DNA from: a phage
NCBI GenBank assembly: GCA_012747475.1
Contig: GCA_012747475.1_3928.1
Length of the DNA: 64,000 nucleotides
Strand: one strand, 5' to 3'
Made by a program: the position numbers and the translations under genes. Below, piece by piece: positions 7,225 through 16,024 of the stretch. The notes under the pieces are model-generated. The model saw nothing but the letters and a program-made list of their open reading frames with translations. It made no database searches and had not been told where the DNA came from. Within the stretch, counting starts at the first letter, position 1. Each line of letters begins with the position of its first letter.

Positions 7225-8010
7225 ATGGGTATTGTAAAAATCATCAATGGCGATATCTTTGCCGCATTTGATAAAGGTAAGTTTGACATTATTGGTCACG
7301 GTTGCAACTGTATGAATTTAATGGGTGCAGGTATCGCTGACAAGATTTCTAAACTTTACCCAAAAGCATATGAGACAGATACAGAAGTCTATCTATATGC
7401 AGGTGGCATAGGTCACAAACCCTGTGAAAATTTACTGGGTAATTTCTCTGTAGCACGTTTAAAACAAGGTCGTATAGCTAACCTTTACACTCAGCTTAAG
7501 ACTGGTAAAGATGCCCGATACAGTGCTTTAGAGTCATCTTTGAAACAGCTTAACAGATACTGTGAAGTTAACCAGTTGAAGAAGGTTGGTCTACCTATGA
7601 TTGGTGCAGGTATCGGTGGACTTGACCCTCAAGCTGTCACAGTTATCATCAATCAGGTGATGAAGAGTGTAGATGTTTATCTGTATGTCTATGAAGGAGA
7701 GATGTACCACAAGTTACGCTCAGGTTGGAAGAACTACTGTGAACCAGAATACTTTGCAGGTGTAGCAGTGTTCACGGATAACGCAGTTACCCTCTTCAGA
7801 CGAAGAAAAGGTAAGATACATCAAAGTAACCCTCCGGTTGAAAGGATGTCTCTAAGTAACGCTCTAGTTACCCACCTGTCGAAGAGCAATCACAGAATAG
7901 CTGTGACATTTGGTAGTGATGCAGATGCTTACATCTATGCAAGAACTGATGAGGATATCGAGACAGTTTTCTCTTCGCCAGAAGTTACCTTCTTAGACGC
8001 AAAGAACTAA
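7225..8010 (+). CDS. macro-domain-like (ADP-ribose binding/hydrolase fold) protein with C-terminal extension
   Basis: IKIINGDI...DIIGHGCNCMNLMGAGIA and VGLPMIGAGIGGLDPQ resemble macro-domain core motifs. Confidence 0.45.
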   Translation: MGIVKIINGDIFAAFDKGKFDIIGHGCNCMNLMGAGIADKISKLYPKAYETDTEVYLYAGGIGHKPCENLLGNFSVARLKQGRIANLYTQLKTGKDARYSALESSLKQLNRYCEVNQLKKVGLPMIGAGIGGLDPQAVTVIINQVMKSVDVYLYVYEGEMYHKLRSGWKNYCEPEYFAGVAVFTDNAVTLFRRRKGKIHQSNPPVERMSLSNALVTHLSKSNHRIAVTFGSDADAYIYARTDEDIETVFSSPEVTFLDAKN

Positions 8011-8080
8011 GAAACTTCGTAGGATATTCACAATAGACTAAGCCTTTCTTATCTGGTAAATTTTTCAGGTAAGGAGGGCT

Positions 8081-8263
8081 TTTTCATTTCAGGATTGTGC
8101 AGGTAGGGTTCTGTAGAGAAATCTATAGAGAAAATTTTGAACTCCAAAGAGAAAATTCATTTTCAAACTGTGCAGGTAATCTCCAAAGAGCTTTTTCATT
8201 TTCAAAACGTGCAGACCCCGCTCAGGTCGGGCAAGAAAAATCATTTTAGAATTGTGCAGGTAG
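8081..8263 (+). repeat. four direct repeats, core TCATTTTCA-N4-TGTGCAGGTA
   Basis: copies at 8081, 8153, 8193, 8238; ORF-free. Confidence 0.6.
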
Positions 8264-8281
8264 GTTTTTATAGACAGCCAG

Positions 8282-8317
8282 CCCAACCCCTCTCCCCCTC
8301 TTACTCCCCCTCTCCCC
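8282..8317 (-). repeat. polypyrimidine C-run tract (G-quadruplex motif on minus strand)
   Basis: CCC-AA-CCCC-TCT-CCCCC-TCTTACT-CCCCC-TCT-CCCC; five G runs >=3 on minus strand. Confidence 0.6.
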
Positions 8318-8438
8318 AAAAGTCAAGAGAAAAATTTGTAGCGGATTGAAAAATAATTCTTGATTTGCGTTCTGTTTTGTGGTAGTCGTGCGCACCCGTT
8401 TCATTACAGTTTTGCCAAAAATATTTTTAAAATTTTTA

Positions 8439-8530
8439 TTGACTCTTTGAACGTGGTTATCTAATATTTACATCAACGGGGAGGGAATGACCTTCCCCAC
8501 TAAATAAAATCCTAAACTGGAGATTCAAAA
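8439..8530 (+). promoter_or_regulatory. class A cassette: promoter + 5' leader stem-loop + SD
   Basis: TTGACT(8439)-17bp-TAATAT(8462); hairpin GGGGAGGGAATGACCTTCCCC; conserved AAACTGGAGATTC before ATG. Confidence 0.6.
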
Positions 8531-8719
8531 ATGGCATCAAGAAAAATTAAAGTTGGCGATGAGGTTAACATTAAGCACGAATACTCTTACAAAATGCTAA
8601 CTATACGCTCTTATAAGGTTTATCAGGTGGAAGCTATCCACAAAGATAATACTTTTTCCTTAAAAGGGTATAGCGAACGTTTCCCTGCTGAACTCTTTGA
8701 GAAATGGAGCGCGAAATAA
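8531..8719 (+). CDS. small hypothetical protein (62 aa)
   Basis: ORF track; ATG directly after class A cassette. Confidence 0.5.
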   Translation: MASRKIKVGDEVNIKHEYSYKMLTIRSYKVYQVEAIHKDNTFSLKGYSERFPAELFEKWSAK

Positions 8720-8925
8720 TGCTTTACAGTCGTGAATTGATGGTTACAACTAACGTTAACACAAAGGTAAAACGTTTTTACATGCAAATTTGTGGCGTAT
8801 GGTCTAGAATATCAGAAGCTGACTATTGCAACTATGTAGAAACAGCTATAAACTCTAATTGCTACCTTACAAGAAACACTAAGAACTTTATAAGACAGTC
8901 AGCAATTTACTACTACGATAAATAA
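8719..8925 (+). CDS. small hypothetical protein
   Basis: ATG overlapping upstream stop (TAATG); track ORF starts at 8704. Confidence 0.45.
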   Translation: MLYSRELMVTTNVNTKVKRFYMQICGVWSRISEADYCNYVETAINSNCYLTRNTKNFIRQSAIYYYDK

Positions 8926-8927
8926 AA

Positions 8928-9015
8928 AGTACTTTACAGGGGGCTTATAAGGCTGTACAGTAAGCCCCAGATAAAGAGCTTTACCACATTAACCCTTAAA
9001 CTAGGAGATTCTAAA
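8928..9015 (+). promoter_or_regulatory. class B cassette: stem-loop overlapping promoter + SD
   Basis: TTTACA-17bp-TACAGT; hairpin GGGGCTTAT/ATAAGCCCC; conserved AGATAAAGAGCTTTACCAC. Confidence 0.5.
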
Positions 9016-9399
9016 ATGGCATATCGTGCACCTAAATTCATCAACAAAGACAACTTTCGCAACGCACTGGAGAAGTCACTTGATGAAAATTTTAAAGGTA
9101 ACATTATCGTTGTTCACGCATTCAATTTTAAGTATGATGTAAATGGGAATAGAATCAACCATTACACGGCAACCATGTTAGATGGTACACTTTCAAGTGA
9201 AAAAGCCGTACTAAATGCACTGGCAGGACGTGGAAAGGTATTAGTAAGATGTGATAAGAGACGTTATCAGGGTGGCGCATATGGTTATGATGATGCTGTT
9301 TACCATCTTGAAAATATGGGCTATCAAGTAGAAAAAGCTGGAGCATCACAAATCATCGGCAGCGATGGTTATGTAACTATCTTCAAAATTAACAAATAA
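9016..9399 (+). CDS. hypothetical protein (127 aa)
   Basis: ORF track; cassette upstream. Confidence 0.5.
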   Translation: MAYRAPKFINKDNFRNALEKSLDENFKGNIIVVHAFNFKYDVNGNRINHYTATMLDGTLSSEKAVLNALAGRGKVLVRCDKRRYQGGAYGYDDAVYHLENMGYQVEKAGASQIIGSDGYVTIFKINK

Positions 9400-9485
9400 A
9401 GTACTTTACAAGGGGCTTATAGTTCGATAAAGTAAGCCCCAGATAAAGAGCTTTACCACTAAATCCTAAATTGGAGAACTTAAAA
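9400..9485 (+). promoter_or_regulatory. class B cassette
   Basis: TTTACA(9405)-17bp-TAAAGT; hairpin GGGGCTTAT...TAAGCCCC. Confidence 0.5.
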
Positions 9486-9776
9486 ATGGCTATTATCAAA
9501 AACGTTGTAATTGCTGCAAAGACTCGTGATGACGCTCGCGTTATGGCTAAAAAGTTATGCGGGAAAGTGGTTGACAACGGAAAACAATCTGCTGTAAGAT
9601 GGGGCGTAAAGGTTGATAAACAGTTGAAGCTAAAAAATTCACCGATAAACCTTTTTACATGTGTAAGCACTATCGGGAAGACAAATGTATACACGAAAAA
9701 GGCATATATTAGACGCATAGCCTTAACATCCCCCATTCGTACAATGAGAGTTTATGCAAAGCTGAAAATTAACTGA
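9486..9776 (+). CDS. hypothetical protein
   Basis: ATG 9486 after cassette; track start 9471 is an upstream TTG. Confidence 0.5.
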   Translation: MAIIKNVVIAAKTRDDARVMAKKLCGKVVDNGKQSAVRWGVKVDKQLKLKNSPINLFTCVSTIGKTNVYTKKAYIRRIALTSPIRTMRVYAKLKIN

Positions 9777-9864
9777 TAAAGTACTTTACAGGGGGCTTAA
9801 AAGTTGATATCTTAAGCCCCAGATAAAGAGCTTTACCACTAAATCCTAAACTGGAGATTCAAAA
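9777..9864 (+). promoter_or_regulatory. class B cassette
   Basis: TTTACA-17bp-TATCTT; hairpin GGGGCTTAA...TTAAGCCCC (compensatory change). Confidence 0.5.
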
Positions 9865-10161
9865 ATGAAATTATCAAATAAAGTCCGTGAGAATTTAAGC
9901 AAGTTACTTAATAAAATTGATTTCATTGAAACATCAAGGAATAGTCATGATGTTATGGAATGGTTACACGGAAAAATCAAAGGCCGTCGTGTAGTGATTT
10001 GCTTATGGAACAGTTGCAGGGAGTATAAAAAACCTGTATTGCAAGTCAATATTTATGATGATACTTTTAAAAGTCCTGTAAAATCTAAAAGTGATTTATT
10101 AGAATCTTATGAGATAACTGTAAGTGGTAAAGTATCACGTAAAGAGGAAACACCATGTTGA
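9865..10161 (+). CDS. hypothetical protein
   Basis: ORF track. Confidence 0.5.
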   Translation: MKLSNKVRENLSKLLNKIDFIETSRNSHDVMEWLHGKIKGRRVVICLWNSCREYKKPVLQVNIYDDTFKSPVKSKSDLLESYEITVSGKVSRKEETPC

Positions 10162-10487
10162 TGACTGGTATCACTGCAATCATTGCCATTTTCGCGCTAT
10201 ATAAGGCATATAAAGCCTATAATCTAGCAAATAAGGCAATCACACAGCAGGTTAGTAATAACCTTGTAGAAAGCTTTCTGGAGCGTTTAAGCGATGAGCA
10301 AATAAAGCGGTTAGAGATGAGCTTCAGATATAAAGCGAAAACCTATCAGATAAGTGACATCTTCAAAGATGATTTTCAGTTAGTGGATGATTATAATTCT
10401 CTGATAAATGCTTTAAATATCAGTGACTTAAAAGACTACTACGCTGTAATTGTTCAAGAATTGAGCAAACGAAAAAATTCCTCTTGA
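10155..10487 (+). CDS. hypothetical protein with N-terminal TM helix
   Basis: ORF track; hydrophobic N-terminus. Confidence 0.45.
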   Translation: MLMTGITAIIAIFALYKAYKAYNLANKAITQQVSNNLVESFLERLSDEQIKRLEMSFRYKAKTYQISDIFKDDFQLVDDYNSLINALNISDLKDYYAVIVQELSKRKNSS

Positions 10488-10578
10488 TTTTGGTTTTTAA
10501 AACAAGTAAATTACACATCAACGGGGAGGGAATGAGCTTCCCCACTAAGTAAAGTCCTTAAACTAGGAGATTCTGAAA
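10485..10578 (+). promoter_or_regulatory. class A cassette
   Basis: TTGATT-17bp-TAAATT(10508); hairpin GGGGAGGGAATGAGCTTCCCC. Confidence 0.55.
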
Positions 10579-10851
10579 ATGTATACTACTAACAACGGTC
10601 GCACTTTAAATGTCACACTACGTCACTATGTAGATGGTGTCATGCACTTTGAAGATTTACAAGCTGAGCAACATATCTTAGATTGGCAAGTCGCAGGACT
10701 CCAAAAAACTGCTACGGGATACGGTAAAAAGATTCCAACCAGTTGGAAAGTACACTACGAAGGACGTTTGCGCAGAATTTATCAAGATGTATGCAGTAAT
10801 AGCACATCAAGTTACATCATAGTAAAAGGTAAAAAACTGCATTTAGTGTAA
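10579..10851 (+). CDS. hypothetical protein
   Basis: ORF track. Confidence 0.5.
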   Translation: MYTTNNGRTLNVTLRHYVDGVMHFEDLQAEQHILDWQVAGLQKTATGYGKKIPTSWKVHYEGRLRRIYQDVCSNSTSSYIIVKGKKLHLV

Positions 10852-10935
10852 AGTACTTTACAGGGGGTTATCAAGCTGATAAGATAACCCCAGATAAAGA
10901 GCTTTACTACTCAATCCTAAATTGGAGATTCTAAA
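10852..10935 (+). promoter_or_regulatory. class B cassette
   Basis: TTTACA-17bp-TAAGAT; hairpin GGGGTTATC...GATAACCCC (compensatory change). Confidence 0.5.
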
Positions 10936-11340
10936 ATGGCTATTAATAACCGTGAATTATCAATCTTAAAAGCACGTTTGACCGTCAACCGGATTAATGT
11001 TCTGACATCATCAGCGCCTGATGAAACATTGCACAACATTATCGGAAAGATTCAAAGCGTTATTTTAGACGTTGAAAATGTAAAAAGTTCATTGGCTGAC
11101 GTTGCAGCAGGTATCACGCTAGACGGTGCGCAATATGAAATGGTTGACATGTTAGGCAAATCGAAGGTAATGAATAAAGAGCTTGATTTAAAAATGTTTC
11201 GATTTGCCGTGAAAGTATGGCTATCCGTCGAGTATGACGCTAATTTTGCAATCGCTGATTTCTTTGCCACTTGGTTACAACGTAATTTGACAAATCACGA
11301 TTTTCGTGATGTCTGTGATGCAATTTATGCAGAACTCTAA
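10936..11340 (+). CDS. hypothetical protein
   Basis: ORF track. Confidence 0.5.
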   Translation: MAINNRELSILKARLTVNRINVLTSSAPDETLHNIIGKIQSVILDVENVKSSLADVAAGITLDGAQYEMVDMLGKSKVMNKELDLKMFRFAVKVWLSVEYDANFAIADFFATWLQRNLTNHDFRDVCDAIYAEL

Positions 11341-11348
11341 AAATTTTG

Positions 11349-11440
11349 TTGACACTGGTTTTTAGATAGATTAAATTACACATCAACGGGGAGGCGATAA
11401 CATCCCCACTAAATAAAGTCCTAAACTGGAGATTCTAAAA
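11349..11440 (+). promoter_or_regulatory. class A cassette
   Basis: TTGACA(11349)-17bp-TAAATT(11372); hairpin GGGGAGGCGATAACATCCCC. Confidence 0.6.
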
Positions 11441-11644
11441 ATGGCTATTATTAACGGTTTAACCATTGAAACTACACACATCAAAGATATTAAAGTTGGT
11501 GATGTAGTCCTTTCCCACGGCGTAGAGAAAACTGTCACTGCAAAGGATATCAAAGAGGATTCTTTCATGGGTAGGACTCTCTTCGGTGATTCTTATTGCT
11601 TAGGGTATCTTGCAGTTTTAAAAGTTGTCAAAAATAACAAATAA
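11441..11644 (+). CDS. small hypothetical protein
   Basis: ORF track. Confidence 0.5.
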   Translation: MAIINGLTIETTHIKDIKVGDVVLSHGVEKTVTAKDIKEDSFMGRTLFGDSYCLGYLAVLKVVKNNK

Positions 11645-11731
11645 AGTACTTTACAGGGGGCTTATAGTTCGATAAAGTAAGCCCCAGATAAAGAGCTTTA
11701 CCACTAAATCCTTAAACTAGGAGATTCAAAA
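11645..11731 (+). promoter_or_regulatory. class B cassette
   Basis: TTTACA-17bp-TAAAGT; hairpin GGGGCTTAT...TAAGCCCC. Confidence 0.5.
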
Positions 11732-12274
11732 ATGAAATGCTATCACGGTACTACTCAAGAAAATTTCCTCAACCTGATTAATAACGGTGATAAACCATCA
11801 GGCGCATGGAATTGTTCGGATATGGACGGCAATTTTTACGTGTACCCAGAAAATAAAATCTATGGCGACGATGATGAAGAGATAACATCAGAGGGTATTC
11901 AGCAAGCTCTAGGCAATGCCACTATCACCGCAGCTTTTCAGATGAAGACTCAAAATATTGTTATCTTAGAACTCGATATTCCAGAGGATGAGCTGAACGA
12001 TGATTATTCTTGTGATAATATGTCGAGTGTAGCAAGTTTTACAGAGTACTTTGATGTAAATTGGATTAAAAAGGTCTATACAACAGAGTTTAACGCTATG
12101 TATTCACCTTTTTGTCTTCCTTCATTGGATAACCCAAATTTAAACTATCTTGATGAGTCTCTGGAGCTTCTTGCTAAAAGTGTTCAACAGTCGGACAGTA
12201 TTCAGGTTTTTTGTGACATCATGGATACACTGACAGGGAACATTGCAGAAGAGGATTTAAAGAGCTTTTTCTAA
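11732..12274 (+). CDS. hypothetical acidic protein (180 aa)
   Basis: ORF track. Confidence 0.5.
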   Translation: MKCYHGTTQENFLNLINNGDKPSGAWNCSDMDGNFYVYPENKIYGDDDEEITSEGIQQALGNATITAAFQMKTQNIVILELDIPEDELNDDYSCDNMSSVASFTEYFDVNWIKKVYTTEFNAMYSPFCLPSLDNPNLNYLDESLELLAKSVQQSDSIQVFCDIMDTLTGNIAEEDLKSFF

Positions 12275-12300
12275 AAACTATACAATCACCTTATAAACAC

Positions 12301-12339
12301 TGATTAGCCCCTTGTAGGGGCTTTTAGGGGGCTTAAATC
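12301..12339 (+). terminator. terminator-like hairpin ahead of next gene
   Basis: AGCCCCT-TGT-AGGGGCT then TTTTAG; GGGGG SD before ATG 12340. Confidence 0.35.
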
Positions 12340-12573
12340 ATGCTAACAACCGTTTATCTCATCCTCTCAATTTGTAATGGCCATTCATGTGACTTTAAAG
12401 GGCTTGAAGAGTTTACAGGGAGTAAAGAAAATGCTATTCAAGTTTGCCAGATAGCAAGACAAGACTATCCCGCCAGTGATGATATACAATGTTACTTTAA
12501 GACAGAAGATGACGATGGAATCTATTTCGATAGTGTTGACGGTCAATATGAAATTATCATTGAAAAAGACTAG
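12340..12573 (+). CDS. small hypothetical protein
   Basis: ORF track. Confidence 0.45.
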   Translation: MLTTVYLILSICNGHSCDFKGLEEFTGSKENAIQVCQIARQDYPASDDIQCYFKTEDDDGIYFDSVDGQYEIIIEKD

Positions 12574-12665
12574 ACAAGCCTGATAAAAGTCTGTAAATTA
12601 TCAATCAACGGGGAGGGAATGACCTTCCCCACTAAGTAAAGTCCTTAAACTAGGAGATTCTAAAA
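12572..12665 (+). promoter_or_regulatory. class A cassette
   Basis: TAGACA-17bp-TAAATT(12594); hairpin GGGGAGGGAATGACCTTCCCC. Confidence 0.55.
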
Positions 12666-13007
12666 ATGGCTTATGTAACCGTAATTACCGATAAAGAGGA
12701 TTCATCTTGGTCAACTCAAGTAAGTGATAAGATGTCGCCTATGCAGTGCCTAAAATACTTTGAGCAGTGGAACAAAGGCGAGGATGTAAGCCCCTTTCAG
12801 GTAATGCAAATCATCCATACAGATAACGAAGGGAATAAAACGACACTGAATAGTGAGTACTATGCAAGCCGTTTTGAAACGAGAAGTAAAACAATGAAGC
12901 TTTTACGTGAATCCGGCTATTCTCACATTGCCGCGCTAATCTGGGATGACCTGCTGAAAAGCCAGCGTATCAGCTATGTAAAACCTGAAAAAATATTCAT
13001 CAGTTAA
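12666..13007 (+). CDS. hypothetical protein
   Basis: ORF track. Confidence 0.5.
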   Translation: MAYVTVITDKEDSSWSTQVSDKMSPMQCLKYFEQWNKGEDVSPFQVMQIIHTDNEGNKTTLNSEYYASRFETRSKTMKLLRESGYSHIAALIWDDLLKSQRISYVKPEKIFIS

Positions 13008-13136
13008 TCAATAACTTATAAAAAACTTTAAAAAATTACTTGACGATACCCCTTGACAATAGTACATTTGTTCGAGGGGGTTTATCTAAAAGGGATTCAC
13101 TTAAAAGATTCTTTATAGATAAGCTTAAAAAATTGC

Positions 13137-13229
13137 TTGCAATCAGTTATCAAAACAAGTAAATTACTCATCAACGGGGAGGCAATAACCTCCCTACTAA
13201 GTAAAGTCCTTAAACTAGGAGATTCTAAA
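13137..13229 (+). promoter_or_regulatory. class A cassette
   Basis: TTGCAA-17bp-TAAATT(13160); hairpin GGGGAGGCAATAACCTCCC. Confidence 0.55.
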
Positions 13230-13760
13230 ATGAACAAGTTCAAAGCTATCAACTATATTCGCTCAAATAGTGTTATGTCTAAGCCTGTTAAAGATACCTA
13301 CGAATTTCGTTGTAATGGGGTACACTTTGCAACCATTACCAAATCAGAAAACGGGGCTTATTACATTCATCGCCGTAATGTTTCTACTGTTGTAGTCTCT
13401 CACTTTATGCAAGCCGTAGCGGAGTTATTACCGTTATTCTTAGAGATTTACTTAGATGAGTGTAAAAACGTTCGCAACCACGTTAAAAGCCTTTTAAATG
13501 GCTATAAAATGGCTTATGAGCGTTCTATTAAGTCACTAAACAAGTTCTATAAAGCCCCTGAAAATACTGTATCAATAGCTTATGATGTAAGTGGTGAAAT
13601 GGTCAATCTCTCTAATGTAGAACAAATTAGCCTTTATGATTTACGTCCTAGTGGCTACTCTAAGACTCTCGGTGAAGGTTTATCCTTCAATATCAAGAAC
13701 TTAGAAAAAACTTTAAGAGATATTGAAAAAGATATTGACGAGACAATCAAAAATCTGTAA
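13230..13760 (+). CDS. hypothetical protein
   Basis: ATG 13230 after cassette; track start 13137 lies inside the cassette. Confidence 0.5.
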   Translation: MNKFKAINYIRSNSVMSKPVKDTYEFRCNGVHFATITKSENGAYYIHRRNVSTVVVSHFMQAVAELLPLFLEIYLDECKNVRNHVKSLLNGYKMAYERSIKSLNKFYKAPENTVSIAYDVSGEMVNLSNVEQISLYDLRPSGYSKTLGEGLSFNIKNLEKTLRDIEKDIDETIKNL

Positions 13761-13824
13761 ATTGTCAATCAACGGGGGATGACCTCCCCCACTAAGTAAA
13801 GTCCTTAAACTAGGAGTTATCAAG
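13735..13824 (+). promoter_or_regulatory. class A cassette (promoter overlaps 3' end of upstream gene)
   Basis: TTGACG(13735)-17bp-TAAATT(13758); hairpin GGGGGATGACCTCCCCC. Confidence 0.5.
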
Positions 13825-14088
13825 ATGGAAAACGTAGAATTAACCACACTATTGCAGATTGCAACTGACAAAGAAGACGTAGCGTTGTTTCACCGTATCG
13901 AAAGTGATTTGTTCAATGGTGAAATCATTAAAGAATCTTACGAAGTTGTCGGATTCAAAGATGGTAAAGCATTTGGCTTTTTTGACCTCGACAAAAGCAA
14001 AGCGGTTACAATGTACGATGTTCTATCTTGTGAAATTCTGACAAAATACAACGAAAAAAGGCTTGCAACCTACGCCAATATGCAGTAA
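13825..14088 (+). CDS. hypothetical protein
   Basis: ORF track. Confidence 0.5.
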   Translation: MENVELTTLLQIATDKEDVALFHRIESDLFNGEIIKESYEVVGFKDGKAFGFFDLDKSKAVTMYDVLSCEILTKYNEKRLATYANMQ

Positions 14089-14155
14089 ATTACTAATCAA
14101 CGGGGAGGGAATGACCTTCCCACTAAACAAAGTCCTAAACTGGAGAATCTAAATT
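14063..14155 (+). promoter_or_regulatory. class A cassette
   Basis: TTGCAA(14063)-17bp-TAAATT(14086); hairpin GGGGAGGGAATGACCTTCCC. Confidence 0.55.
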
Positions 14156-14404
14156 ATGTCAACTATCCGCGTAACTGTTAATGCTTATGGCTGCCACCAA
14201 CTTGATGCAAAATTCGATATCGGTGGAACAGATAACACCTTTGACCTTATCAAAATGCTGATTCAGCAGGTGATACCAGATTATAACCCTACTGATGACT
14301 TCTGGAAAGATGCCGTAAAAGAAGCCATAAACGAGGAATCTCACTACCATTATTGGGGTGACTTGATTGTCTCTCTATACTACAGCAAACAAGGCTACAA
14401 CTAA
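14156..14404 (+). CDS. hypothetical protein
   Basis: ORF track; last gene of small-gene array. Confidence 0.5.
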   Translation: MSTIRVTVNAYGCHQLDAKFDIGGTDNTFDLIKMLIQQVIPDYNPTDDFWKDAVKEAINEESHYHYWGDLIVSLYYSKQGYN

Positions 14405-14468
14405 TCGACGCAGCGGGGCTAAATAGCCCCAGATACCTTTACAGCCACTTAAATGGGGCTTTTTTACG
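14405..14468 (+). terminator. terminator at end of small-gene array
   Basis: GGGGCT-AAAT-AGCCCC hairpin, then GGGGCT followed by TTTTTTAC. Confidence 0.45.
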
Positions 14469-16024
14469 TCTATCGAATCCTTATACAACCCCTTTCCCTT
14501 TCCTTTCTAGAATCTTATCAGACCTTAAAAGCAATAACTCTATAGTCTACTCTATAGCCTTTTATCAAATCAACTTAAATATAAGCCCATAACCCGAAAG
14601 GGAAGGGCAACCATTAAAACGCTCTATAAAGCTCTATAACAGCCTTATCAACCTAACTTAAGCAATCATATTAACCCACTCTAAAAAGCCCTTTATAGAG
14701 CTTCCCAGAGCCTTAAAAGAATCTTATAAGGGTATAAGCTTTATTATCTCGTTAGCTATCTTGTGAACTACTAAAAAGGGCTTGTTAGTGTCTTAAAAGT
14801 ATGTTATAGGGGCTTTAAAGTTACTTCAAAGTTGCTTAAAAGTTACGTAAATGCTAGCCCCCTTAACATTTTCTTAACAATTTCTTAACAATCCCTACAT
14901 AGTTATGCTTGTTAGAGACTTGTTAGCCCCTTGTTAAATCTCTGTTAAGACCACGTAAAAGCCTTGTAAGAGTCTTTGACATAGCCTTAAAAGCTCCTGT
15001 AAAGCCCTATAAAGAGCTATCCATACAGTTGAGGGGTAGATACTAGGAAGAGGCTTAAAAGGGGCTATAAGGGGCTATAGAGAGCTTTTAAGAGGTATGT
15101 TTAGAGATTCACTAAGAGGGAAAGGGAACGATAAGAAAAGAGATAGTGACCATGTTAATAGCTTGTTAAAAAGATTAAACACTTGTTAGAAACTTGTTAA
15201 TTATCTTAACAAAATAACTCTTTAAAATTAACTTGTTAGCTCTTGTTAGTCATCTGTTAAGATTCTGTAAAGCCTATTCAGCACTTGTTAAGAGACTGTT
15301 ACAGCCTTGTTAGTTCTGTTAAGAATCTGTTAAGACCTTTGAAGAGTTGTTAAGAAGGTGTTAGAACTGTTAAGAGATTGTTAAGGATATTTTAAAATTT
15401 TGCAAAGTACTTGTAAGGGAGCTGTTAAGGGCTACCAAGCAGATATACATCTTCTACAGATATTTTTGAGTTCCTTCAAAGACCCTAAAAAATGACTTGA
15501 TAGTCCTATTTTATAAAAATTTTAAAATTCTGAATAATTACCTATACAGTCTTTTAAAAATACAGGTAGAAACAGGCTTATAAGATACCTTGTTAGTACC
15601 GTGTTAGACCTTGTGAGATAAGGTCTGTAAAGATATTCCTGTTAAGTTTGTTAAAACAGTCTATATAGAGGCTTAGTAATACCTAGTGAACACCTATAGA
15701 GAGTATCATAGCTAACCTAGAGATTAAGAGGTGTATAGGAGCTTCTAAGAGGGTGTAGAGGTATGGTTAAGGTGATTGTATAGGTTGTTAAGAAGGCTTG
15801 TTAGAAGAGTGTTTAGAAGGACTATACAGAGGGGCTATTAAGACCACTAGATAGTTACTAAGATACTATATAGTACTATATAACTATATAGAGAGTAAGA
15901 TTAAGGAGGTTGTTAAGAAGGATAGATATTTTATTCACATATGATGGTGACCCAGAGGTTGGGACAACCGATAAAATTTTATAAAAATTAAAAAGCCCCC
16001 GATTAAGGAGGCTCTTAAGATATT
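14469..16024. repeat. ORF-free repeat-dense region rich in CTNNNNAG words
   Basis: no ORF >=60 aa either strand; CTTATAAG, CTTTAAAG, CTATAAAG, CTATAGAG, CTTGTTAG, CTGTTAAG recur dozens of times. Confidence 0.75.
15150..15432 (+). repeat. helically phased array of ~20 TGTTA(A/G)G units
   Basis: TGTTA at 15165,15185,15196,15235,15244,15255,15286,15297,15308,15317,15328,15348,15359,15368,15379,15423; spacings 9, 11 or 20 bp. Confidence 0.75.

Follow-up and report, generated by a model that had tools for sequence, protein, structure and literature searches.

The locus at 8439-14468 of the 64-kb stretch of phage DNA analysed here (the window) packs short genes between recurrent promoter-like and hairpin-forming repeats, here called cassettes, which raises the question of what these repeats do for the genes, their transcripts and the evolution of the phage. 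The window belongs to a Felixounavirus, i.e., a Felix O1-type phage (Felix O1-like myovirus).

The gene array and its place in the genome

The inventory given in the earlier note holds: 15 ORFs of 62-180 aa, all on the + strand, are accompanied by 12 cassettes, seven of class A and five of class B. The class A core ATCAACGGGG occurs on the + strand at 8472, 10517, 11382, 12604, 13170, 13768 and 14096, and the class B core AGATAAAGAGCTTTAC, likewise on the + strand, at 8969, 9441, 9821, 10892 and 11686, with 0.00 chance matches expected for either core from dinucleotide shuffles. Searches for extra copies outside the array recovered none in the 64-kb window, and none in the remaining 24 kb as represented by Felix O1 62-86 kb. 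The array is delimited by the following features:

8040..8081, + strand: left boundary, an intrinsic terminator (17-pair stem, then a T run) that closes the upstream operon; identical to Felix O1 't13' (Table 2 in PMC3185647)
14415..14465, + strand: right boundary, a class B relic followed by a terminator
14415-14435, + strand: the relic, a promoter-less class B upper hairpin plus AGATA after the last gene, kept in all relatives
14443-14465, + strand: intrinsic terminator, Felix O1 't23' (PMC3185647)
14857..15436, strandless: counterpart of the relatives' direct terminal repeat, mapped from the Pr103Blw and SeKF_63 records

The latter two records carry exact repeats (581-bp and 613-bp, respectively) at both ends, which map to 14857..15436, 390 bp beyond the array end; no further gene cluster thus separates the array from the right physical end of the virion DNA. 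Its genes are:

8531-8719, + strand: 62 aa, overlaps the 73-aa gene
8704-8925, + strand: 73 aa, overlaps the 62-aa gene, no cassette of its own
9016..9399, + strand: 127 aa
9486..9776, + strand: 96 aa, missing in Felix O1, LNA1 and REP8
9865-10161, + strand: 98 aa, overlaps the 110-aa gene
10155-10487, + strand: 110 aa, overlaps the 98-aa gene, no cassette of its own
10579..10851, + strand: 90 aa
10936..11340, + strand: 134 aa
11441..11644, + strand: 67 aa
11732..12274, + strand: 180 aa, weak ADP-ribosyltransferase-like fold
12340..12573, + strand: 77 aa, no cassette of its own, follows a terminator-like hairpin
12666..13007, + strand: 113 aa
13230..13760, + strand: 176 aa
13825..14088, + strand: 87 aa, absent in Felix O1, LinBro and VpaE1
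14156..14404, + strand: 82 aa, the fastest-evolving array gene

Only three of the 15 (starts 8704, 10155 and 12340) lack their own cassette. Cross-genome comparison supports the coding status of these small ORFs, with third-position differences dominating in 15/15 and synonymous exceeding non-synonymous differences in 13/15.

Class A cassettes

All seven copies combine a predicted promoter, a hairpin and a start codon:

8439..8533, + strand: A1, -35 TTGACT 8439-8444, -10 TAATAT 8462-8467, 5' hairpin 8478-8498 (-15.2 kcal/mol), Shine-Dalgarno, ATG 8531
10484..10581, + strand: A2, -35 TTGATT 10484-10489, -10 TAAATT 10507-10512, hairpin 10523-10543, ATG 10579
11349..11443, + strand: A3, -35 TTGACA 11349-11354, -10 TAAATT 11372-11377, weaker hairpin 11388-11407 (-8.6 kcal/mol), ATG 11441
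12571..12668, + strand: A4, -35 TAGACA 12571-12576, -10 TAAATT 12594-12599, hairpin 12610-12630, ATG 12666
13137..13232, + strand: A5, -35 TTGCAA 13137-13142, -10 TAAATT 13160-13165, hairpin 13176-13195, ATG 13230
13735..13827, + strand: A6, -35 TTGACG 13735-13740, -10 13758-13763 (promoter within the 3' end of the preceding 176-aa gene), hairpin 13774-13790, ATG 13825
14063..14158, + strand: A7, -35 TTGCAA 14063-14068, -10 14086-14091, hairpin 14102-14121, ATG 14156

Across 169 distinct copies in their sequence contexts from relatives, the consensus is TTGnnn-17-TAnnnT with an A-tract upstream: T1 and G3 of the -35 are kept in 167/169 and 166/169 copies, TAnnnT in 169/169 at a spacer fixed at 17, and A occupies each position from -45 to -40 in 106-162 of the 169. 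The hairpin begins 2-3 nt past the predicted transcription start, and all 87 variants fold from this same point using several unrelated stem sequences, with a mean energy of -12.3 kcal/mol vs -3.2 kcal/mol in shuffles.

Class B cassettes

In class B the promoter-like hexamers lie within the hairpin itself:

8926..9018, + strand: B1, bipartite hairpin 8926-8982 (-20.7 kcal/mol, z -3.5), -35 TTTACA 8933-8938, -10 TACAGT 8956-8961, Shine-Dalgarno, ATG 9016
9398..9488, + strand: B2, hairpin 9398-9454 (-19.7 kcal/mol, z -4.7), -35 9405-9410, -10 TAAAGT 9428-9433, ATG 9486
9778..9867, + strand: B3, hairpin 9778-9834, -35 9785-9790, -10 TATCTT 9808-9813, ATG 9865
10850..10938, + strand: B4, hairpin 10850-10905 (-20.4 kcal/mol, z -4.8), -35 10857-10862, -10 TAAGAT 10880-10885, ATG 10936
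11643..11734, + strand: B5, hairpin 11643-11699, -35 11650-11655, -10 TAAAGT 11673-11678, ATG 11732

The consensus over 177 distinct copies from relatives is TTTACA-17/18-TAnnnT: TTTACA is present in 177/177, and 17 nt after it comes TAnnnT in 170 and TAAAGC in one more, while the other six keep the hexamer at an 18-nt spacer. The -10 hexamers match only 4/6 consensus positions, and the AGATAAAG box starts 6-8 nt past them in the 177 copies. The hairpin proved larger than first described, being a 57-nt, two-part structure with compensatory changes in both helices. The 'AGATAAAGAGCTTTACCAC box', previously taken for a separate conserved element, is instead the 3' strand of the lower helix, formed by the conserved box AGATAAAGAGCTTT and, at the upstream stop codon, AAAGTACTTTA. 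Similarly, the commonest upper stem is not GGGGCTTAT/ATAAGCCCC but GGGGCTTA/TAAGCCCC plus a U.G pair, with B4 using GGGGTTATC/GATAACCCC; the compensatory change reported for this stem does recur, as its pairs switch from GC to UA and from CG to UA. All five copies in the window fold identically at -19.7 to -20.7 kcal/mol (0/200 shuffles equally stable). Among relatives, 95% of upper-stem cells are paired, a level reached by 0/500 shuffles, and 98% of the lower stem is paired vs 32-59% when slid. At pair 4 of the lower stem, 45 distinct combinations have G-C and 9 have U-A. Such covariation counts are raised by shared ancestry and copying between cassettes. The frequent G.U pairs in these stems indicate sense RNA as the acting strand. 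Since the TTTA of the -35 sits in the lower helix, its invariance alone is no proof of a promoter.

Common features and additional hairpins

Both classes end in one common 3' leader/Shine-Dalgarno module, and both have their -35/-10 hexamers and 17-bp spacers as originally described. Positions 1, 2 and 6 of the -10 are invariant and 3-5 free, and the -35, itself invariant, stands at a constant distance of 17-18 nt. The Erwinia phage phiEa104 of another genus (Kolesnikvirus) retains these hexamers, although its stems are changed to GGTG/CACC. The description as promoter cassettes is supported in that the conservation pattern fits promoters, Erwinia phages of another genus included; the activity itself is predicted from sequence. 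For class B, whose TTTACA is also part of a conserved RNA helix, a role in processing or stability is as plausible as that of driving its gene. Our literature search found no transcription-start or reporter study of any Ounavirinae phage. Two further elements accompany the cassettes:

13040..13086, + strand: third-type, thirteenth promoter/hairpin, TTGACG-17-TACATT, hairpin 13049-13080 enclosing the -10, T-rich tail; kept in 12/12 relatives, with no gene directly 3'
12306..12325, + strand: terminator-like hairpin AGCCCC-TTGT-AGGGGCT followed by TTTT, 3' of the 180-aa gene; kept in all relatives

Cassettes as crossover points

The cassettes are the crossover points of array gene gain and loss among relatives. 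Mapping the genes of 12 relatives gave 40 indel boundaries, of which 36 are no more than 30 nt away from a cassette, in line with the earlier proposal that the repeats may be recombination sites, and 23 fall inside one, although cassettes make up 18% of the array. Where both flanks end at a cassette, as in about eight kinds of indel, the flanks overlap by 21-121 nt, i.e., by cassette length, as expected for homologous, not site-specific, recombination. Modularity, too, is borne out, as the same gene can follow class A in one phage but class B in another. The 62-aa and 73-aa genes (8531..8925) are jointly missing, as one unit, from five relatives, and a 170-aa gene is inserted at B3 in Felix O1, SeKF_63 and 35FD. 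Cassette identity within genomes (0.81-0.88) is at least equal to that of orthologous positions between genomes (0.77-0.86).

Comparison with known systems

The closest known kind of element is the PeSL (promoter-early stem-loop) cassette of the T4-like phages RB49/phi1, T4/PST and KVP40/nt-1 (PMC2839356, PMC4122927; Arbiol et al., 2010; Comeau et al., 2014). The array cassettes match its definition (PMC2839356), with an AT-rich upstream region, sigma-70-like -35/-10 boxes 17 bp apart (T4/PST have the same TTTACW -35), a Shine-Dalgarno at the 3' end, and a GGGG...CCCC stem-loop either between or over the boxes (compare class B) or after the -10 (compare class A). Both cluster among small orphan genes in hyperplastic regions, and indels between close relatives break in them. 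However, the array phage is of the Ounavirinae lineage, with about 87 kb and no known T4-type transcription programme, and has only two sharp sequence families plus one shared leader, all in a single 6-kb array by the genome end. Further, its class B stem-loop is a 57-nt, two-part structure whose lower helix uses the stop-codon and predicted start regions, and its class A hairpin lies inside the predicted transcript. Promoter, terminator and mini-circle activity have been demonstrated for the RB49/phi1 cassettes, whereas those of the array are putative promoters.

In the T7 early region, RNase III sites separate genes 0.3 to 1.3, downstream of the host promoters A1-A3. There, as predicted for the array, small early genes in a row are transcribed from host-RNA-polymerase promoters located at one end of the genome, and by analogy the conserved interrupted hairpins between array genes could yield monocistronic mRNAs with protective hairpin ends. 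In contrast to T7, where promoters stand at the unit start only and the hairpins are promoter-free, the array has a promoter-like element at nearly every gene, and its transcription runs towards the genome end rather than away from it.

Emory, Bouvet and Belasco reportedly described in 1992 the ompA 5' UTR and 5'-terminal stabilising stem-loops of E. coli mRNAs. A hairpin 2-3 nt from the 5' end is the geometry that protects against 5'-end-dependent RNase E attack, and this is where the predicted class A hairpin begins; its start site and stabilising effect are predicted, however, and its sequence is unrelated. Finally, integron attC cassettes and lambdoid 'morons' are likewise single-gene modules with their own expression or recombination signals that accumulate in an array, an analogy also drawn for PeSL by Arbiol et al. 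(PMC2839356). Unlike in integrons, no integrase or attI-like site was recognised at the array, and unlike the array genes with their cassettes, morons are without flanking conserved repeats.

A three-level model and its alternatives

We propose, and consider it probable, that the locus is a hyperplastic accessory-gene array of PeSL-like composite cassettes acting at three levels. As double-stranded DNA, each cassette would be a host sigma-70 promoter, with the form TTGnnn-17-TAAATT and an A-tract at -45 to -40 in class A, and TTTACA-17-TAnnnT in class B. As sense RNA, each would be a hairpin. Class A transcripts are predicted to start in the invariant ATCAAC and hence to carry, within 2-3 nt of their 5' end, a G+C-rich hairpin, which may be a 5'-terminal stabiliser by analogy with the ompA stem-loop. 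In RNA reading through from upstream, class B would form its 57-nt two-part hairpin from the upstream stop codon onwards, whose probable effect is to terminate, process or stabilise the message from upstream or to attenuate read-through; the embedded promoter would then restart transcription at AGATAAAG. In both classes, UCC(U)...(A)GGA in the shared leader may weakly mask the Shine-Dalgarno. In evolution, the ~90-bp cassettes would provide the patches of homology that allow phage recombination to remove, add or exchange modules of one gene each, and also to homogenise the cassette sequences. Early timing would be expected; in Felix O1 semi-quantitative RT-PCR, array ORFs 16, 20, 21 and 22 peak at 5 min and ORFs 17, 19 and 23 at 25 min (PMC3185647), so that the 5-min class holds only about half of the array genes, which counts against this model.

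Alternatively, though this seems unlikely, class B might be RNA punctuation and not a promoter, with long class A-driven transcripts being cut at, or trimmed back to, the 57-nt hairpin and yielding monocistronic mRNAs with a protective 3' hairpin. With its ~19 bp and 3x3 internal loop, the hairpin would resemble the intergenic RNase III sites of the T7 early region. Compensatory change does mark the helix that the conserved box forms with the TTTA of the '-35', the G.U pairs point to sense-RNA function, and the promoter-less relic persists after the last gene in all relatives. Class B always lies 3' of a class A promoter with no intervening terminator and is never the first element after a terminator in the genomes examined; hence, it could be a purely intercistronic RNA element. 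However, punctuation leaves unexplained the near-invariant T and A at hexamer loop positions 1-2 (the next three loop bases vary), the 17-18 nt from TTTACA to the hexamer, kept also in Erwinia phages with changed stems, and the invariant CA of TTTACA despite its internal-loop location. The helices are also short and A/U-rich for RNase III, and this role is compatible with the promoter reading, not exclusive of it.

Insulation, the original reading of PeSL stem-loops (PMC2839356), would make the hairpins mainly attenuators or terminators, with each gene expressed only from its own promoter. The PeSL211/210 GGGG...CCCC stem-loop lowered lacZ expression to a degree comparable with the rrnB T1 terminator (PMC2839356), and the class B hairpin is stable and begins at the upstream stop codon. 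Nevertheless, we regard this as improbable: neither class has a U-tract after its hairpins and a terminator scan flags none, so classical intrinsic termination is not predicted, and true U-tract terminators flank the array and follow the 180-aa gene, which suggests that the cassette hairpins are something else. Moreover, the class A hairpin, being 3' of its own predicted start, would attenuate its own transcript too.

It is considerably less probable that the class B boxes AAAGTACTTT and AAAGAGCTTT are operators at which a dimeric phage or host DNA-binding protein shuts off the promoter after the early phase. Both are near-palindromic and almost invariant, one overlapping the -35 and the other the predicted start, but in lower-stem variants the left half of box 1 changes together with the right half of box 2, the pattern expected of box-box pairing and not of two independent or homogenised palindromes; further, no DNA-binding protein was recognised among the array gene products. 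Least probable is that the repeats have no function today and are left over from a single ancestral gene unit that was duplicated in tandem: such duplication can produce tandem-array repeats, and the Felix O1 paper (PMC3185647) and the wV8 record list the cassette sequences merely as direct repeats, but BLAST sorts the flanked genes into at least 14 families (the sole grouping being that of the 90-aa with the 67-aa gene), the cassettes are much better conserved than neutral DNA across four genera, and which of their positions are fixed and which vary follows a pattern peculiar to promoters and helices.

The array products

A host-takeover or anti-defence role for the products, as suggested in the earlier note, is hypothetical. 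All 15 array proteins are orphans: each falls into a PHROG of unknown function, and neither Pfam nor NCBIfam gave a match. The 180-aa product shows a weak likeness to the ADP-ribosyltransferase fold, with H5, Y36/Y38 and E80 conserved.

Two families of cassettes in the small-gene array

Repeat finding, pattern searches, and alignments recover two repeat families in the array, with seven copies of class A (-35 and -10 boxes followed by a hairpin) and five of class B (promoter boxes inside a hairpin), as the earlier note had proposed from the sequence alone. The 12 cassette copies span 87-98 bp each, the chance expectation for either core in shuffled sequence is 0.00 matches, and no further cassettes occur elsewhere in the 64-kb window or in the other 24 kb of Felix O1. 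The array itself comprises 15 plus-strand ORFs of 62-180 aa, which occupy 8531-14404; the claim that a cassette precedes most of them is true for 12 of the 15. Two genes lacking their own cassette (starts at 8704 and 10155) overlap the gene before them, and the other, at 12340, has a terminator-like hairpin upstream. A thirteenth element, viz., a promoter/hairpin of a third type, lies at 13040-13086 and is kept in all relatives. The stretches 13000-13042 and 13097-13139 share 72% identity and constitute a diverged tandem copy of the promoter upstream region, 5' of the fifth class A cassette (A5), so that two promoter-like elements stand in succession before the 176-aa gene. What look like "tandem A-B" and "B-B" cassettes on the gene map of the relatives are false positives of the pattern search, one caused by ATCAACGGGA within a coding region and the other by the resemblance of the class B 5' box to the 3' box (the two strands of its lower helix).

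Both classes have in common a leader at the 3' end, ACTAA(A/G)TAAAGTCCT(T)AAACT(A)GGAGATTCTAAAATG, and the cassette terminates in a Shine-Dalgarno sequence and start codon. The leader reads either CCT-AAAYT-GGAG (195 copies) or CCTT-AAACT-AGGAG (145 copies), and none of the 340 is mixed (examples in the window at 10553-10567 and 8510-8522). With its extra T and A, the longer form would gain one U-A pair in UCC(U)/(A)GGA, a small hairpin over the Shine-Dalgarno sequence; selection for pairing could explain the two unmixed forms, as could tight linkage by itself.

Promoter signatures

We assessed the promoter signatures in a cassette set drawn from 12 annotated relatives plus 43 IMG/VR fragments; the contigs of origin were all 54-94 kb long. 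Class A displays a -35 element of the form TTGnnn (T1 in 167 and G3 in 166 of 169 distinct copies), a spacer of 17, and a -10 element TAnnnT in all 169 (TAAATT in 126). Between -45 and -40, A is the commonest base at each position (106-162 of 169), resembling the proximal UP-element subsite. In class B, TTTACA is invariant in 177 distinct copies and is followed 17 nt downstream by TAnnnT in 170 and TAAAGC in one, the same hexamer being found at 18 nt in six. Any base occurs at positions 3-5 of this hexamer, and judged by sequence its conservation is the profile of a sigma-70 -10 element; furthermore, its T and A sit in the hairpin loop, so pairing cannot account for their conservation. The Erwinia phage phiEa104 (Kolesnikvirus) has class B stems of the form GGTG...CACC, yet retains TTTACA-17-TAGTAT/TAATCT, and in its class A-like units the -10 lies within the hairpin loop. 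Both cassette classes are also present in the Suspvirus SUSP1.

Transcription is predicted to start at AGATAAAG in class B and within ATCAAC in class A; the literature searched yielded no transcription-start or RNA-seq study of this phage group. RT-PCR of Felix O1 assigns the array ORFs 16, 20, 21, and 22 to a 5-min class and 17, 19, and 23 to a 25-min class (PMC3185647), and set against these, neither cassette class has a distinct timing. The interpretation of the earlier note, viz., modular promoter cassettes driving early genes, appears largely right, with the class B promoter standing as a candidate and the early timing and protein roles as putative.

RNA hairpins

A hairpin is present in all 87 distinct class A variants, beginning 3 nt past the A of the invariant ATCAAC in 83, with a mean stability of -12.3 kcal/mol vs -3.2 for shuffles. 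The stems vary widely and include GGGGAGGG/CCUUCCCC, GGGAGG/CCUCCC, GGGGC/GCCCC, and GGGA/UCCC. With a start assumed ~7 nt past the -10, the class A transcript would begin 2-3 nt ahead of the hairpin, which is the geometry of a 5'-terminal stabilizer.

The class B hairpin described earlier is likewise present, but that description was too small and missed the lower helix, in which AAAGUACUUUA, a stretch that overlaps the upstream stop codon, is the partner of UAAAGAGCUUU in the "conserved box". In the complete fold, a 3x3 internal loop separates the lower helix (10 bp, with one A.A mismatch) from an upper helix of 8-9 bp. All five copies in the window share this fold (-19.7 to -20.7 kcal/mol, z -3.5 to -4.8), and none of 200 shuffles is equally stable. 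The compensatory change reported for the upper helix is borne out, with 95% of cells paired, including GC to UA and CG to UA replacements; only 18-62% are paired when the partner is slid, and 0 of 500 shuffles reach the observed pairing values. The lower helix is 98% paired vs 32-59% when slid, and its pair 4 is G-C in 45, U-A in nine, and unpaired in six of the distinct box combinations. In the 5' box it is the left half that carries the changed bases, and in the 3' box the right half, as expected if the boxes pair with each other. Homogenized direct repeats do not fit this half-box pattern, and the co-variation speaks against independent palindromic operators. Since G.U pairs are frequent, the class B structure belongs to the sense strand, i.e., to RNA. 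A scan of 7900-15600 with the Rfam 15 covariance models detected no family, the one match, to a miRNA model, being sub-threshold and due to chance. Across 185,579 bacterial and archaeal genomes, the class B box was found as one chance 20-mer on an unrelated contig without cassette context, and IMG/VR scans gave matches only in Ounavirinae-type contigs of 54-94 kb.

The cassette hairpins lack a following U-tract and go unflagged in the terminator scan; by sequence they do not qualify as intrinsic (rho-independent) terminators, i.e., a G+C-rich hairpin with a U-tract. Only three sites qualify:

8040-8081, intrinsic terminator
12306-12325, intrinsic terminator (weak)
14443-14465, intrinsic terminator

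Ahead of the last of these, all relatives retain the upper hairpin of class B as a relic with no promoter.

One tentative reading, which we regard as rather unlikely, is that class B has a dual use, serving as a host promoter in dsDNA and as a 57-nt hairpin with ribosome-gated folding in the read-through RNA, thereby forming self-insulating, recombination-ready units with two routes. As this two-part hairpin starts within the upstream stop codon, the terminating ribosome would decide its folding, and the folded RNA would be cleaved or serve as a 3' end. The RNase III sites of T7 early RNA comprise about two turns of dsRNA with an internal loop between cistrons; the predicted class B fold (10 + 9 bp, a 3x3 loop, and one A.A mismatch) has a compatible geometry. 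Were the dual-use reading true, classes A and B would give each cassette gene two expression routes, and the cassettes would be a phage counterpart of the integron cassette with no need for an integrase.

Recombination at cassettes and comparison with known systems

The gene maps of the relatives display a syntenic backbone with presence or absence of single modules. Cassettes make up 18% of the array; when the relatives are compared pairwise with the window, cassettes contain 23 of the 40 breakpoints, and 36 of the 40 lie no more than 30 nt from one. About eight distinct kinds of events have both breakpoints at cassettes, and their flanks overlap by 21-121 nt, i.e., part or the whole of a cassette, which we interpret as the trace of unequal homologous exchange. 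The breakpoints and junction overlaps support the earlier suggestion that the repeats are recombination sites, and the comparison across relatives that it had called for finds content varying by single modules and the class before a gene able to switch, a given gene being preceded by class A or by class B depending on the genome. Cassette identity within a genome (0.81-0.88) is at least as high as that between genomes at orthologous positions (0.77-0.86), a relationship in the sequences that points to ongoing copying between cassettes. The cassette homology extends into the first codons of downstream genes (9461-9499, 10912-10950, 11416-11454), so crossovers can fall within the start of the coding sequence; the N-termini of three unrelated array proteins read MAII or MAIN, and those of two others MAY. 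An integron cassette array, with attC sites, integrase, and attI, is rejected, there being no integrase-like protein among the array genes and the junction overlaps fitting homologous exchange.

A closer likeness is to the PeSLs (promoter-early stem-loop cassettes) of T4-like phages, defined as conserved ~100-bp units in which an upstream stop codon and AT-rich sequence are combined with a sigma-70-like promoter, a stem-loop (GGGG...CCCC) between, over, or after the promoter boxes, and, at the 3' end, a Shine-Dalgarno sequence with a start codon (Arbiol et al., 2010, PMC2839356). PeSLs cluster among the orphan genes of hyperplastic regions and mediate modular shuffling (PMC2839356); the T4/PST consensus is TTTACW...N17...TAYWAT (Comeau et al., 2014, PMC4122927). 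As far as sequence can tell, all these features are present in the array cassettes: -35 and -10 boxes ~17 bp apart with an AT-rich upstream region (seen in ~170 copies per class), a stable stem-loop, often GGGG...CCCC, in or beside the promoter, and a 3' end carrying the Shine-Dalgarno sequence and start codon. They also lie in a variable region of small orphan genes, where indels between relatives break at them. However, strong promoter and terminator/attenuator activity and mini-circles have been demonstrated for PeSLs (PMC2839356), whereas the array cassettes are known as sequences, and PeSLs were defined in T4-like myoviruses, whereas the phage considered here is a Felixounavirus of the Ounavirinae. 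Given that PeSL denotes a functional class rather than a homology family, the difference in lineage limits the label and not the mechanism.

The cassettes were listed in Felix O1 merely as "57-bp and 39-bp direct repeats" (PMC3185647), and they are annotated as DR_1 to DR_9 in the wV8 record and as "terminator" in some others. The wV8 genome paper and the comparative Felixounavirus paper do not discuss the repeats, and the literature searched contained no paper tying them to promoters or PeSLs. The present analysis would replace "DR", "terminator", or no label with 13 predicted compact host-type promoters and two predicted RNA hairpin modules, all directly testable, and would carry the PeSL principle, i.e., regulatory repeats as recombination linkers shuffling orphan genes, beyond the T4-like phages into an unrelated group. 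Salmonella and E. coli typing, biocontrol, and therapy make wide use of Felix O1-type phages, and the cassettes mark natural, tolerated insertion points for their engineering.

The array genes and their genomic position

The small genes are real, as shown by orthologues from up to 12 relatives, with third-codon-position differences dominating in every ORF. In 13 of the 15, synonymous changes outnumber non-synonymous ones (349 vs 111 in the 180-aa gene), the faster-evolving genes being those at 9486 (44 synonymous vs 46 non-synonymous) and 14156 (152 vs 175). All 15 proteins match PHROGs of unknown function, and Pfam, NCBIfam, and PDB sequence searches with them returned no significant match. 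The 180-aa protein may be an NAD+-dependent ADP-ribosyltransferase (candidate residues H5, Y38, and E80), for which a macro-domain protein encoded nearby is a possible counterpart. The 90-aa (10579-10851) and 67-aa (11441-11644) proteins form one BLAST family via versions of intermediate length in the relatives (105 aa in Felix O1; 82 aa in REP8 and 35FD), and from these sequence links may be paralogues; they match two separate PHROGs, 3436 and 3623.

A megablast search with 8400-14500 retrieved 258 phage records, chiefly Escherichia, Salmonella, Shigella, and Citrobacter phages, with vB_EcoM-Pr103Blw as the top match (95%); those individually examined are all Ounavirinae, and the window belongs to Felixounavirus of this subfamily. 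Felix O1 is collinear with it, its ORFs 13-23 corresponding to this stretch. The records of Pr103Blw and SeKF_63 carry exact terminal repeats (581 and 613 bp, respectively) at both ends, which map to window 14857-15436; a terminal repeat of ~600 bp was demonstrated experimentally in UAB_Phi87 (PMC4837284). From this mapping, the array is transcribed towards the right end of the virion DNA, and no other gene cluster lies between it and that end. This 6-kb region is a place to seek host-interaction or anti-defence genes. The array is followed by a conserved, gene-free region of ~1.2 kb (14470-15700) with many short repeats (CTATAGAG, CTTAAAAG, CTTGTTAG); as 14857-15436 is the counterpart of the direct terminal repeat in Pr103Blw and SeKF_63, this region probably holds the packaging ends. 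On the other side, the 350 bp of non-coding sequence that separate the first promoter from the upstream terminator contain four copies of approximately TCATTTTCAAAnTGTGCAGGTA at 8084-8320, followed by a C-rich tract (CCAGCCCAACCCCTCTCCCCCTCTTACTCCCCCTCTCCCC); in several relatives the repeats are retained and an unrelated G-rich sequence takes the place of the C-rich tract.
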